A DNA stretch of 63,818 bases, counting the filler. It is 18 parts of 18 records of this genome, joined end to end, with 100 filler letters (N's around TTAATTAATTAA, not from the genome) between each part and the next. Parts side by side here need not be neighbours in the genome. Positions count along the whole stretch, not along the records: positions 2,655 to 5,981 come from SRR16133337_93944; positions 6,082 to 8,698 come from SRR16133337_93985; positions 8,799 to 10,839 come from SRR16133337_94194; positions 10,940 to 13,889 come from SRR16133337_94325; positions 13,990 to 16,034 come from SRR16133337_94484; positions 16,135 to 18,409 come from SRR16133337_94906; positions 18,510 to 21,346 come from SRR16133337_95323; positions 21,447 to 24,750 come from SRR16133337_95446; 10 more parts are not named here. One strand, 5' to 3'. The notes under the pieces are model-generated. The model was not told the DNA's origin and made no database searches. It saw only the letters and a list, made by a program, of their open reading frames with translations. Of the stretch, positions 5,954-61,429 are shown piece by piece; the first letter of the stretch is position 1; the number at the start of each line of letters is the position of its first letter. A program made the translations under genes and the position numbers.

Positions 5954-5980
5954 TATACTCCACCCCCTTAGAAACCCGAA
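5954..5980 (+). repeat. Dispersed bacterial repeat copy (TATACTCC...TTAGAAAC family)
   Basis: TATACTCCACCCCCTTAGAAACCCGAA at the contig end, similar to the copies at 25711, 41030, 44103, 46592/46623 and 61403. Confidence 0.8.
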
Positions 5981-6904
5981 ANNNNNNNNNNNNNNNNNNN
6001 NNNNNNNNNNNNNNNNNNNNNNNNNTTAATTAATTAANNNNNNNNNNNNNNNNNNNNNNNNNNNNNNNNNNNNNNNNNNNNAAAAATGTGATACATGTTT
6101 TCCTTTGTACCACCAAAAACTAAATCAAACAAGTTCGTGAATAAATAACGTTTATCACGATAAATTAAAGCACCTATTTTTTTGGTGTTGTTTTTTGAAA
6201 AAAATGTTTTGAGTCACACGGAAATTATTTGAGCACCTGCAAATATCTGGAAAAAAACATTGTTTTATGTCGTCAGATTCCACAATTACTTTATGCCATC
6301 ACCCAAATAATTTACGCCGCTCTGTATGTCTACAGTATCGTAGACAAATAATGACTCAGTTGCAGAACCGTCCATTTTCTCTGTGTTGTGGCTATGATTC
6401 AACAAATTTTTAGTACGTGCTGATGACAAGTATTTGGAACCTAAAAATGAAAACAGTTTTCACAAATTCGTTTTTCACAATAAAAAACTTCAATATTGTT
6501 AATTTTTACAAGTTTTATTTTGAGTCATTGTACTTCACACCACAAAAGAAAATTTGTACGTCGATTTCTGAAAATCCACCGTGCCATTGTGGAGAAATCT
6601 TGAATTTTGTGTTTTATTCCTGAAAACAGATCATTTTAATCCCACTGATTGAAACAACGGTCCATGAAAATACAATTTAATGCCAAAAAGACAGGATAAC
6701 TCACCAAAAGGAAACTTCTCTCATTGTTTCGGATTTCGTTCGATAATGACCCAGAAGTTTAATGAGCACACAGAAAGAAGGCATTAGTTTTACATGACTA
6801 CCCAAAAAAGTGTGTGAGCCATTAATTGCCCATAGCAGTTCCGGGCGCTTTGAAGATATCAATTTATTATAACAGCTGTTGTTTTTGCAAATGTTTTACT
6901 TTAG

Positions 6905-7128
6905 ATAGGACTGCATTTGGCAACGAGAATTATGGAGACGAGCTTTTGATGTTCTACTTCAATCTCGATTATCTTGGAATTAATTTGGGAAATATTCCGA
7001 AGTTGATTAAGAAAAAAGAAAAAGAAATCATTAAATCGAGCCTTTTCCCTAAACTCATCAATCTTCCATCACTTCCACAATTCGTTAGGGATTGGATCGT
7101 TGACATGGCAAAACGTCATGTTACATGA
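6905..7128 (+). CDS. Terminal exon of a probable eukaryotic BTB/POZ protein (upstream paralog)
   Basis: Acceptor ttttacttTAG| in phase 1. ELLMFYFNLDYLGI resembles the last BTB helix (ELLxAADYLxI). Ends at TGA 7126-7128. Confidence 0.45.
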
Positions 7129-7783
7129 TATGAAAAATGAAAATCGACAAGACACTCATAATTGAAAATGACATTTTTATTTCACTAAGATTTTGTCTTA
7201 CAGCATTCTCACACAGTCAAGTGTACAATAGATGATTGTAAATTCGCCATAAAACGTGTTGTAAATATTATATTCATAAAACCACGTCACACGTTTACCC
7301 TTTGATATATTTTCTGTTTAGATAAGTGTATAAGCGGTCAGTTTTTGTTCGTACCACACCGAAAAGTGTAACTTTATTGCCGGTTGCAAATAGTAATGAG
7401 TACATTTTGTTCTCCAAACACAGTCGATTAAGAGATCTCTGACATTTTACCACATCTAAAATTATTAGGTATGTTTTGTTGTAAAAAAATTACAAATTGT
7501 CCTCAAATGTGTGTGTTGTGTGTTATTTCATTGTAAAAACACATTTGTATCGTCGCTTGTAGGCAAAATTGCCTGTGAACTTTATTCATATAACGCACTA
7601 TTGCTTTCAAAACTGCGCCAACGATGTGTATGATCCAAGGATAAATTAAATACTTTTTATGATGCTCAAAATTCCAAACTAAAATCCTTAACCCTTACCC
7701 AATAAAAAAAATTGCCAAAACTTGACGCCAAAAATTCGCCAATCCGTCCGCGGCAAAGAGGAATCCGTCGTGTGTACAACAGA

Positions 7784-8045
7784 ATGGTGGACTCCGAGCA
7801 GAGTGGCAATTTTCCGATGGGCGATATTCAAAAACTGTTGCAGCGGATTGAAATTTGCAAGAAAATAAAAGTTGGCGAAGCAGAATATTTCATTCCTGAA
7901 AACCTTGCAACTGAAAAAAGCACATTCTTCAAAGGAATGTTTTCTGGAGCTTTTGCGGAAGGAATTGGAAACAACGAAGAACCAGTTGAAGTTCACATTC
8001 CATATCCAGAAGCTTTTCAGTACGCATACAGAAGAATGTTGTTTG
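7784..8045 (+). CDS. First exon of a eukaryotic BTB/POZ-domain protein
   Basis: KIKVGEAEYFIPENLATEKSTFFKGMFSGAFAEG...EVHIPYPEAFQ matches the BTB core (S.YF.AMF.G.F.E). Phase-1 donor TTT G|GTATGT at 8046. Confidence 0.7.
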
Positions 8046-10222
8046 GTATGTCCCTTTGGAACATTTCTTGTAAGTTTATCATAAGAATTAACATGAAGTG
8101 TAAAAATATGTGTAGTATGTATCAATACATATCCTCCACTCCACCGCTTCAATAAAACCCCACCCCTTCGAAAAAACGAAAAGTTCCTCAAGTAAGAACA
8201 CACACCATAGACCAAAAAACCACCTACATTTTTCAAAATTTGAAAAATTGAGATTTTCCAGTTTTCAGCAACAGCAATTGTCACATTGTTTTTAAAAAAA
8301 AAGCGAATTTTTTAATATTATGTTTCATGATGAATAATGTGTGAATTTTTGCATACGTTTCATCACTTTTCATGACAAATCATGCGAAATTAGTAAAAAA
8401 TGTGAATTTTCGCGAAAAAGAGCTTAAGGTGAAATTTTTCGTCAAATGAACGACGATCTCCACACCCTTGAAGTTTGAAAAATTAAAAGTGGAAGTGGAA
8501 TTGGGAAGGATTACTTCAGAAACTACTTGGATGTGTGATTCATTTTGTCCTCGATTTTGCTACTTTTATTATTTCTGTGGACGCAGTTATGTTTTTTAAA
8601 AGCCCGAAGAAATGATCGACGTAAAAGTTTTGTTTTTGATGGGGAAAATTTCAATGGAATCCGTTTGCTTGTGGTATGTTTCAGTGGCTCAAAATAAANN
8701 NNNNNNNNNNNNNNNNNNNNNNNNNNNNNNNNNNNNNNNNNNTTAATTAATTAANNNNNNNNNNNNNNNNNNNNNNNNNNNNNNNNNNNNNNNNNNNNAT
8801 TTCTTATAGGTGAGAGTTTACTGTAGTCTAATTCTTTAAACGTTATAAATATTTTTCTTCCAATTGTAACCTTACTTACTGGATTAAAGCAGTTTGAAAC
8901 ACGTGATAACATTTCATAGAACCTCCACCACAACACCACTTCCTTCCATTTAAGAATTGAAAAAACACACGAATTTTAATCTTCACGAAAGTTGCCATAC
9001 ATTCAATTTTTTGGATACATTTTCCATGAAAAGGGCGACTTTTACAAACCAACACCCCCAGAAGTGGAAAATATGTGAGTAAGACATGAAATCTAAGTCC
9101 CACGCCCTCCCAAGACACGTATCCATACATATCGTATTAATAAATAACCCCCATCTGTCACACTCCTTTCACGTACTTTTTTTTTCAAAAACTGACGAGT
9201 GCAAAGCGGTGGGGTGATCTCGGAAAAAATACAATGACAAATAATTTCTCTTTGAAATGTGAAAAAAACCGAAATTTTCACAAATGAAACTTTGGTGTGA
9301 AAAACTTTCCTCCAGTTCTTTTTGTTTACAATAATTCATGAAAAATATGAAACTCGATTCACATCTGCCAAAAAATGATAGAAATATGTTGTTTGGCTTC
9401 AAAAAAAGTCAGAAACGCCAACCAATTTTTACTAATTTTCAAAAAAAATGTGAAATTCAAATAAAAGAAGACTAATTGCCAAAACTACCCGCCAGATTTA
9501 AATGTGAAATATCGGCTGCATGAAAACTTATATGATAATTTGAATTTTGTTGTTACTCTGCCTTTCACAGGGGTGAAAATCACCAACTTTCTAGAAAAAG
9601 TACATCTTGTTTTGCAAATTTTCATTTGAAACAGTGGAACCAAAAACCGTTGTTGCAAAAATAGAATTTCACGTTTTTGACAACTAGCGCAAAATGCGGC
9701 CATTCACGGCCATAAAGCGGTCCGAAAAATCATGCATGAACAGTTCTTTCACTTAAAATTCACAAAATAAAAAAAGACAAAAACATGCGAAAATTCGTTC
9801 TCTGGTAATACAAGGGTGTTTCAAAGAAAAATCAAGTGTCTCTGAACTTCTATTTTTGGGTTTTCTCCAATTCCATGAAATTTTGATGCATTTTCACGTC
9901 GACAAGAACAAGTCCCTTTGTGGATTCTCGATCGCACCAATCTCAATTTGGCGCCTCACGCGGCGAGTTTTCAATATTTTTCACGAGTTTTCAACGTTTC
10001 AACTCAAATTTTGCCACTGCACAACATGCATTTTCCAACGCGCACTTTTCTGTCAAATTCCGAAAATGCACGCAAAAACTCCTGGTGAAACAAGCACAGC
10101 CCCTTTTCTCATTGTACACAATCATGGCGAGTGAATGCATCTTTCGGGAATTTTTTTTCATGGGTTTGTGACAATTTTTCTTCTAAATTTTGAGCTATTT
10201 CTATTCTAATCCGTCTGCTTAC

Positions 10223-10377
10223 ATGTTTTGATTGTCGAGAGGAGCGTATGAAGGCTGTGACCCTTCAAAACAAACAGGAATGGCGACCTCGCGCTCCAAG
10301 ACAGCTCCTCGTTCCCCGACTGGTGGAATGCTTGCTTGAAATCTCTTGCCCACTCGTATTATCCCTTTGCTATCCAT
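10223..10377 (-). CDS. First exon of a eukaryotic ELM2-domain protein
   Basis: MDSKGIIRVGKRFQASIPP carries the ELM2 signature IRVGxx(Y/F)QAxIP. Donor AAC AT|GTAAGC. Too short for the ORF track. Confidence 0.65.
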
Positions 10378-10503
10378 TGCAGAGCTATTGCAGAATGGAG
10401 TTGGTGTGGTGTGTTCCCTCTCGAGAAAAATGAAAAAAGAATGAGCAAATATAATTGCGGAATGGTGTTGAATTGTTCAGTGAAAAATAAAACCGACATT
10501 GTT

Positions 10504-10529
10504 TTTAGGGTTTCCTAGGTTTAGGGTTT
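10504..10529 (-). promoter_or_regulatory. Two telo-box-like AAACCCTAAA motifs upstream of the ELM2 gene
   Basis: TTTAGGGTTT on + at 10504-10513 and 10520-10529, about 130-150 nt 5' of the ATG at 10377. Confidence 0.35.
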
Positions 10530-61013: not shown

Positions 61014-61077
61014 GATTCTTAATTTTAATTCTTAATTTATGATAGGTGTTTATTATACTCTTCTATTAATTTCTTTG

Positions 61078-61149
61078 AGCCAATGACGGGATTTGAACCC
61101 GTGACCTCTTCCTTACCAAGGAAACACTCTACCCCTGAGCTACATCGGC
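61078..61149 (-). tRNA. tRNA-Thr (GGT)
   Basis: GCCGATGTAGCTCAGGGGTAGAGTGTTTCCTT-GGT-AAGGAAG...GTTCAAATC...ATTGGCT. Confidence 0.96.
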
Positions 61150-61162
61150 CAGTTTAATTTAG

Positions 61163-61235
61163 AGCGAAAGACCGGGCTCGAACCGGCGACATTCAGCTTG
61201 GAAGGCTGATGCTCTACCAACTGAGCTACTTTCGC
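61163..61235 (-). tRNA. tRNA-Gly (TCC)
   Basis: GCGAAAGTAGCTCAGTTGGTAGAGCATCAGCCT-TCC-AAGCTGA...GTTCGAGC...TTTCGCT. Confidence 0.96.
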
Positions 61236-61292
61236 AATCTAAGGGTCAGATCTCTCTCTTAGCTCACAAAAGCTTGAGAACTAAAAGATGCG

Positions 61293-61373
61293 TGGTGAGA
61301 GAAGGATTCGAACCTTCGAAGCTTGCGCAGCAGATTTACAGTCTGCCCTCGTTGGCCACTTGAGTATCTCACC
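61293..61373 (-). tRNA. tRNA-Tyr (GTA)
   Basis: GGTGAGATACTCAAGTGGCCAACGAGGGCAGACT-GTA-AATCTGC with a long variable arm. Confidence 0.96.
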
Positions 61374-61402
61374 ATTGTTCAAAGAACTATTTTTCTCCTT
61401 CT

Positions 61403-61429
61403 TATACTCCGCCTGGGTAGAAATCCGAA
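61403..61429 (+). repeat. Dispersed bacterial repeat copy
   Basis: TATACTCCGCCTGGGTAGAAATCCGAA in the tRNA-operon leader. Confidence 0.75.

Follow-up and report, generated by a model that had tools for sequence, protein, structure and literature searches.

What is the degenerate motif of 22-27 nt that recurs between the genes of a marine-type flavobacterium, and how did it get there? The motif lies in a stretch of 63,818 bases (the window), in which 18 contigs are joined via N44-TTAATTAATTAA-N44 linkers; coordinates run along the whole window. A preliminary description of this DNA had taken the motif for the terminal inverted repeats (TIRs) of a miniature inverted-repeat transposable element (MITE) of IS630/Tc1 type that drives erosion of the genome. 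Our analysis leads, on balance, to a different reading, in which the motif is the conserved ~26-bp module of a lineage-specific, non-coding, multi-copy, modular dispersed repeat that would be moved by some enzyme.

The existence of the repeat family itself is well supported. At no more than three mismatches, the 22-mer given earlier has five matches in the window (5954+, 25713-, 41030+, 44103- and 46623-), whereas 0.00 are expected from shuffled sequences and none of 100 shuffles reaches five. Relaxing the threshold to five mismatches gives seven copies, the additional ones being 61403 (four mismatches) and 46587 (five mismatches). When the window was scanned with a family profile, a sequence-only covariance model built from the seven units, these scored 21.0-27.9 bits and the eighth match 5.2 bits; the gap indicates that the family is discrete. 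Near-identical copies at unrelated loci far above chance are what defines a dispersed intergenic repeat in the generic sense, and the degenerate dispersed repeat described earlier is thus real. According to a gene list based on open reading frames (ORFs), all seven units are intergenic. They are spread over six contigs (2, 10, 14, 15, 16 and 17), three on the plus and four on the minus strand, at a density of seven in ~3.4 kb of intergenic DNA:

25710..25735, plus strand: unit, the consensus copy GGGTTTCTAACTGGGCGGAGTATACC, 27.9 bits, 0 mismatches to the 22-mer
5953..5978, minus strand: unit, 25.9 bits, 11 nt upstream of the -7-type box of lpxD, with the contig end 3 nt further
41029..41054, minus strand: unit, 25.8 bits, 58 nt downstream of the beta-carbonic anhydrase gene (Pro_CA, 40358-40972)
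44100..44126, plus strand: solo unit, 24.6 bits, between the start of a TonB-dependent receptor gene and a possible divergent ORF from 44169
46586..46611, minus strand: left arm of an inverted pair, 21.0 bits, the most diverged unit, immediately after the end of an OmpA/TSP3 gene
46621..46645, plus strand: right arm of the inverted pair, 22.9 bits, adjoining the gldB terminator hairpin
61402..61427, minus strand: unit, 22.6 bits, 29 nt upstream of tRNA-Tyr

The consensus of the unit is T-n-GG-GTTTCTAAC-n-GGG-C-GGAGTATA, and its core of ~26 bp can also be written (C)GG-GTTTCTAAC-NNGG-YGGAGTATA. Eleven of 22 columns are invariant across the seven units (TTTCTA, GG, G and AT), and six units terminate in TATA or TATT. 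Copies 25713 and 41030 are identical at 25 of 26 positions within unrelated flanks, and point to recent copying. Two copies lie at contig ends, as had been noted before: 5954 is 27 nt from the end at 5981 and 41030 is 55 nt from the end at 41085, both turning their GAAAC side toward the break. The inverted pair (46592-46608 and 46623-46644), with its 14-nt spacer, was likewise found as described, and is the sole one among the seven units. The octamer TATACTCC, previously counted at nine intergenic sites, does occur at these nine; there is also an unlisted tenth occurrence at 42528, within the TonB-dependent receptor gene, and 1.25 are expected overall (none of 100 shuffles reaches ten). Six of the ten lie outside units, the genic one included. 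The suggestion that octamer-only sites may be decayed copies gained no support from the profile, which recognises none of them as a family member (best score 4.4 bits, at 41310-41322).

Single units do not fold. For 25700-25745 and 44093-44134 the minimum free energy (MFE) comes to 0 kcal/mol, two further single units reach -1.5 to -2.4 with z > 0, and even the inverted pair folds at just -6.1 kcal/mol (z -2.2). As no hairpin forms, recognition of the unit is most likely by a protein that reads duplex DNA. At gathering thresholds an Rfam scan returned four tRNAs alone, and in 40900-47704 no match at E<=10 overlapped a unit. At the TATA end conservation breaks off abruptly, and at the opposite side 2-3 nt more (CGG or GGG) are conserved before the sequence turns A/T-rich. 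Beyond this, the flanks in common differ by pair of copies: the GTTTC-side flank is alike over ~12 nt in 25713 and 46623, the TATA-side flank over ~13 nt in 5954 and 44103, and the GAAAC-side flank over 16 nt in 41030 and 61403 (CCG, an A/T run and GTCT). Readings of the unit as a sigma-70, sigma-54 or extracytoplasmic-function (ECF) promoter were dropped by eye, as no second element is conserved at fixed spacing in either orientation. Its origin from a tRNA was also dropped by eye.

The sequence onward from the 41030 copy is present in many copies. As an independent contig set we used the contigs of one public run, aligned to contig 14 at >=90% likeness. Both ends of that contig stand out:

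41052..41085, plus strand: multi-copy extension (CCG, T8, GTCTTGC...), running from the GAAAC side of the 41030 unit to the contig end
36468..36534, plus strand: multi-copy region at the opposite contig end, matched by four other contigs

The depth is 73.6 over the unique body of contig 14, 218.9 in its first bin and 855.9, summed, in its last bin (40934-41085), and most of the aligned records stack on 41036-41085. Other contigs share sequence onward from 41052 (four contigs), 41056 (two) or 41036 (one) and differ before that point. The one joining at 41036 bears a variant of the unit preceded by GATACTCCATCCAAAT, resembling 41311 in the window. All joining contigs stop near 41072-41088, as expected if many copies merge into one repeat. 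Given a depth of ~70x, the short contigs are therefore explained by repeats and not by low coverage, which bears out the earlier link between motif and contig breaks. The right-hand multi-copy sequence GTCTTGCAGTTAGGTTGTCTTGC has no match at <=3 mismatches in 121 sampled Flavobacteriaceae genomes and no second copy in the window. A blastn search of 41015-41085 and 61395-61485 against plasmids gave nothing better than E=3, and thus no match to the end of a plasmid-borne insertion sequence (IS). The region at the other end, 36468..36534, contains a hairpin with an 8-bp stem and a possible indel-bearing relative of the unit (TATGAGTTTGCCCTGGATATGAAACCCC), the likeness being judged by eye.

To which organism does the family belong? 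Eight contigs of the window (2, 8, 10, 13, 14, 15, 16 and 17), 36,469 nt in total, are bacterial. Their coding fraction by simple longest-ORF tiling is 0.8-0.97 (~90% coding), and the ORF-based gene list leaves 3,376 nt of intergenic DNA. They carry lpxD-lpxC/fabZ-lpxA, guaA, argE/B/F-type genes, a SulP transporter, a beta-carbonic anhydrase, a TonB-dependent receptor, an OmpA/TSP3 protein, gldB, rpoB/rpoC, tuf and four tRNAs, and would all originate from one genome. LpxD identity is <=72% at each of the 80 top loci found in 185,579 species genomes. The closest of these belong to uncultured Flavobacteriaceae, Tenacibaculum and Polaribacter, and GldB is 44-57% identical to its counterparts in five of the nearest genomes. 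The host is therefore an unsampled lineage of Flavobacteriaceae.

As far as the searched collections reach, sequence comparison indicates that the family is restricted to this lineage. An exact search pattern, which fits three of the seven copies, has no match in the 185,579 species genomes or in viral contigs. It has five matches in metagenome contigs, which look like chance because the G+C content of the contigs ranges over 0.26-0.57 and the flanks are unrelated to those of the window copies. At <=3 mismatches, 401 sampled Flavobacteriaceae genomes give five matches, versus three for a backwards control, which is chance level, and none of the five nearest genomes has a match (best profile score 13.2 bits). 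Our literature search found no such repeat family described for Flavobacteriaceae, nor GTTTCTAAC reported with Flavobacter. The literature joining Flavobacteriaceae with repetitive extragenic sequences appears to consist of species descriptions, strain or outbreak characterisations and methods, and not of accounts of native repeats, and none was found joining Flavobacteriaceae with miniature inverted-repeat and intergenic.

Two loci could be compared with their orthologs, and at both the unit proved absent from the relatives, as the preliminary description had anticipated for a mobile sequence. In all three relatives compared (L096-L098), tRNA-Thr(UGU) lies 86-206 nt upstream of tRNA-Tyr and is identical among the three at 75 of 75 positions. 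In the window, the corresponding region reads as follows:

61428..61480, minus strand: inner flank of the 61403 copy, in local alignments like the 41030 extension over its first 16 nt and further on occupied by a second repeat family (61454-61477)
61490..61519, minus strand: decayed 5' half of tRNA-Thr(UGU), 20/30 identical in fixed register to the tRNA of relatives

The window block 61529-61599 is ~90% identical to the three relatives. Homology continues past it, in the same register, into the decayed 5' half of tRNA-Thr (binomial probability 1.2e-5), and is then lost. In place of the 3' half and the spacer there are ~95 nt, with the second-family copy and then the unit. Homology to the relatives resumes at GGAGAAAAA..GTTCTTTGAAC, ~5 nt beyond the TATA end. 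Neither ARAGORN nor Rfam calls the remnant a tRNA. None of the three orthologous regions upstream of tRNA-Tyr contains the unit, which here sits inside the transcribed spacer of the operon, the conserved promoter being further upstream. At lpxD, the unit is absent from all 80 orthologous upstream regions and stands where, in relatives, the preceding gene ends. The shared TATACTTTTG box, which we take to resemble the Bacteroidota -7 promoter consensus, is preserved; the unit ends 11 nt upstream of it, and homology resumes 6-9 nt after the TATA end. At both loci, then, the TATA end appears from these alignments to act as the outer boundary of lineage-specific DNA. At gldB, the downstream gene order is not kept in any of the five relatives. 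Absence from the orthologous lpxD and tRNA loci, together with absence from the nearest genomes, argues against a conserved regulatory site. As to erosion, the loss of one tRNA-Thr(UGU) adjoining a unit is what remains of that claim; it was overstated for the genome at large, the coding fraction of 0.8-0.97 showing no general decay.

These observations are best read as those of a repeat that behaves as selfish, spreading DNA more than as a gene switch. In the mechanism that we favour, the double-stranded unit would be recognised by a transposase or recombinase. In some copies it would form the outer end of a longer modular element, which would run from its outward-facing TATA end through GTTTCTAAC, CCG and the A/T run to GTCT and onward, and other copies would be solo or truncated units. 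Copies would have been added to AT-rich intergenic DNA beside promoters and terminators in the host's lineage alone, and the longer versions would be frequent enough to interrupt assembly from short reads. An insertion, or a recombination event between copies, would on at least one occasion have deleted the adjoining 3' half of tRNA-Thr(UGU). A bolder version, which we consider distinctly unlikely, is that an undescribed enzyme, for instance a site-specific recombinase or a transposase of a new kind, recognises the unit and shuffles or copies short modular blocks between genes (a flavobacterial counterpart of the repetitive extragenic palindromic (REP)/RAYT system acting on double-stranded, non-hairpin sites), or else that the unit is a self-marking uptake signal, of a sort not known from the phylum.

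Several points weigh against our reading. The window shows no complete element with two defined ends and no target-site duplication; since the units end in TATA, a duplication is not separable from the element's own end, and the relatives (LpxD <=72%) are too distant for nucleotide-level empty sites. Five of the seven units are solo. Neither a transposase nor a RAYT nor a recombinase is encoded in the window, and no transposase domain was found among the 35 ORFs scanned, in agreement with the preliminary description. The depths, being summed over contigs, may have contributions from further strains or organisms sequenced in that run. The 11 of 22 invariant columns are not clearly above the ~9 that uniform divergence would leave (by our own arithmetic on seven sequences), and are therefore compatible both with selection on a binding site and with its absence. 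Finally, a sliding local alignment of the tRNA remnant alone is not significant (93 of 1000 shuffles), so that significance attaches to the fixed-register count only.

How do other explanations fare with the same evidence? The one proposed initially, a classical MITE in which the motif is the TIR of a TA-targeting IS630/Tc1-type non-autonomous element and solo copies are remnants, now seems rather unlikely. The sharp TATA end with its TATA or TATT in six of the seven units, the existence of one inverted pair, the multi-copy interior after the 41030 copy and the boundary near the TATA end at the tRNA and lpxD loci all fit it, and IS630/Tc1-mariner MITEs resemble the family in being non-autonomous, intergenic and multi-copy with a terminal TA. 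However, there is a single inverted pair among the seven units, with a spacer of 14 nt; the 2.4-kb contig of copy 25713 holds no inverted partner for it; at 44103 the supposed inside of the element is the start of the receptor gene, the start codon being 22 nt from the inward flank; and the segment that replaces the tRNA sequence has a different repeat family, and not an inverted copy, at its other end. With five of the seven units solo, the model of paired TIRs, tested here, does not describe the family, and neither a constant length nor a TA duplication nor a matching transposase is seen in the window. The IS630/Tc1 assignment drew on the terminal TA alone. Also unlikely is a host-kept protein-binding repeat within a mosaic of the type of bacterial interspersed mosaic elements (BIMEs) and REPs, an extra-palindromic module comparable to the non-palindromic motifs of E. 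coli BIMEs, that sits next to small hairpin repeats and binds a nucleoid or architectural protein or serves as the landing site of an IS ending in 41052-41085. Different pairs of copies do have different flanks in common, and the four and two contigs that share 41052/41056-41085 and differ before look as if an independent element began there, but these upstream parts may be diverged units clipped by the 90% likeness cut-off. Two small hairpins with 8-9-bp stems, 3-nt loops and GTAG/CTAC ends occur at contig ends (36348-36366 and 36497-36520, the latter in a multi-copy region), but there are just these two, and the window encodes no RAYT.

A cis-regulatory or promoter element of a regulon, for example of cell-envelope genes (lpxD, TonB receptor, OmpA-like and gldB), appears very unlikely, even though four of the seven units point, from GTTTC to TATA, at a nearby start (lpxD at 25 nt, tRNA-Tyr at 29 nt, the possible ORF at 44169 and the TPR gene) and the presumed -7-type box follows at both lpxD (11 nt) and tRNA-Tyr (16 nt). 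The spacing to that box is not constant, three of the seven units lie after gene ends or between convergent genes, the tRNA-locus unit is in a transcribed spacer downstream of the conserved operon promoter, and the unit is missing from the orthologous promoters of 80 and three relatives and from five whole related genomes. Most improbable, in our opinion, is a signature of the DNA uptake type that marks self DNA for natural transformation. Such a signal could be non-palindromic, dense, present on both strands (three plus, four minus), lineage-specific and once paired in inverted orientation between convergent genes, as the unit is, but none of the seven copies is in coding DNA despite contigs that are ~90% coding, 26 nt is long for such signals, and the flanks are multi-copy. 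The DNA uptake sequences (DUS) of Neisseria and the uptake signal sequences (USS) of Pasteurellaceae are non-palindromic words over-represented on both strands, sometimes as inverted pairs after genes. They have cores of 9-12 nt, are frequent inside genes and are family-wide, whereas the unit is 26 nt long, never in genes and absent from related genera.

Two further systems invite comparison with the repeat family. Correia elements (CREE) of Neisseria are intergenic and lineage-enriched, have a TATA-starting end, often lie near promoters or terminators and are mixed with other small repeats. The likeness to the present family lies in a short, non-coding, intergenic repeat with a TATA end in a mosaic with other repeat families. 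They differ in that each has a pair of inverted ends, separated by 100-155 bp, and duplicates a TA, whereas here most units (five of seven) stand alone, the arms of the one pair are separated by 14 nt and no duplication is evident. REP units, as characterised in PMC3733652, are palindromic, tagged GTAG or CGTC, 20-40 nt long, densely extragenic and species-specific, and occur as singlets or inverted pairs in mosaics. On that account, the RAYT-mobilised REP/BIME/REPIN sequences and our family have in common short, dense, extragenic units, singlets plus an inverted pair, and a mosaic context. The differences from REPs and REPINs on the same account are that the unit is non-palindromic and has no fold (MFE 0 kcal/mol for 25713 and 44103) and that the tag GTAG/CGTC is absent from the consensus TnGGGTTTCTAACnGGGCGGAGTATA, the variant 61403 alone reading GGGTAGAAAT. 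Being non-palindromic and without the tag, the unit is not a REP.

Bacterial genomes are shaped by small dispersed repeats, which interrupt assemblies, give rise to rearrangements and deletions and can change how neighbouring genes are expressed. The present family is unusual in being non-palindromic and very dense, in coinciding with contig breaks at ~70x and in having one copy at a destroyed tRNA gene. Simple proportion would put the number of copies in the genome in the hundreds. If a complete genome were to hold hundreds of copies and the enzyme, the two would make a new kind of repeat-and-mobiliser pair. Otherwise it would be an ordinary lineage-specific repeat, of use mainly as a marker of, and a warning for the binning and assembly of, the host bacterium.

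Unit 25710..25735 lies within a 491-nt non-coding stretch upstream of the TPR protein gene. The TonB-dependent receptor gene beside 44103, on the minus strand with its start at ~44080, is intact and encodes both Plug and barrel. In the OmpA-family gene (44595-46584), thrombospondin type 3 repeats flank the OmpA domain at either side. The frameshift that splits this gene, reported previously, is real and lies near 46350, the second frame (46357-46584) retaining a TSP_3 repeat; it is ~240 nt from the repeat pair with no visible link, and an assembly error is equally possible.

Other repeats were noted on the bacterial contigs. A second dispersed family, ATTGGTTTCAAATTTTAACGAAGTTAG, occurs at 27238-27264 (plus strand), 48003-48024, 61454-61477 and 63554-63572 (all minus strand); the end of contig 10 is 5 nt from one of them, another comes after the rpoC-DUF3467 terminator and a third adjoins the unit of the tRNA locus. 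Searched as TTTCAAATTTTAACGAAGTTAG in the five nearest genomes, it has one match versus two for the control, which is chance level. Contigs 2 (2655-2695) and 13 (33409-33463) both begin in a simple repeat of TTCATTCTTCATT type, with 28 of 31 aligned positions in agreement, just downstream of lpxA and of an argE-like gene; this is another repeat at contig breaks. Two GGTTT(T)CTAAA words, matching the unit in its first block, stand ahead of the hairpin at 36337-36366 (-8.1 kcal/mol, z -4.1), which together with the hairpin at 36497-36520 may represent a true REP-like family of the same genome. The octamer GGAGTATA / TATACTCC flanks a hairpin as a direct repeat in two places, namely 25727-25811 (69 nt with a perfect 15-bp stem, -16.5 kcal/mol, z -7.4) and 41311-41350 (24 nt with a 6-bp stem); the arrangement resembles either a small insertion that duplicated 8 bp or a couple of incomplete units. 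In block 61529-61599 (minus strand), just upstream of tRNA-Thr, a promoter-like pair TTTG...TACATTTG precedes a short hairpin (CCGTTAGAAATAATGG) with a T run after it, and this hairpin and the 61403 variant have the 9-mer GTTAGAAAT in common (consensus: GTTAGAAAC), possibly by chance.

The remaining ten contigs (1, 3-7, 9, 11, 12 and 18) have coding fractions of 0.20-0.57, or 0.78 for one that is mostly a reverse-transcriptase ORF, and no Pfam match except for reverse transcriptase (RVT_1, on a low-GC contig). They are probably not bacterial, and a eukaryote is probably mixed into the same assembly. Two of them have a G+C content of 24-27%, 16635-18407 is among the low-coding regions, and these contigs bear short repeats of their own, words of TGTGAAAA type. 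On contig 10, which is otherwise bacterial, the region 24852-25361 is an open-ended ORF without a Pfam family, apparently made up of an extracellular domain, one hydrophobic span and an acidic tail.

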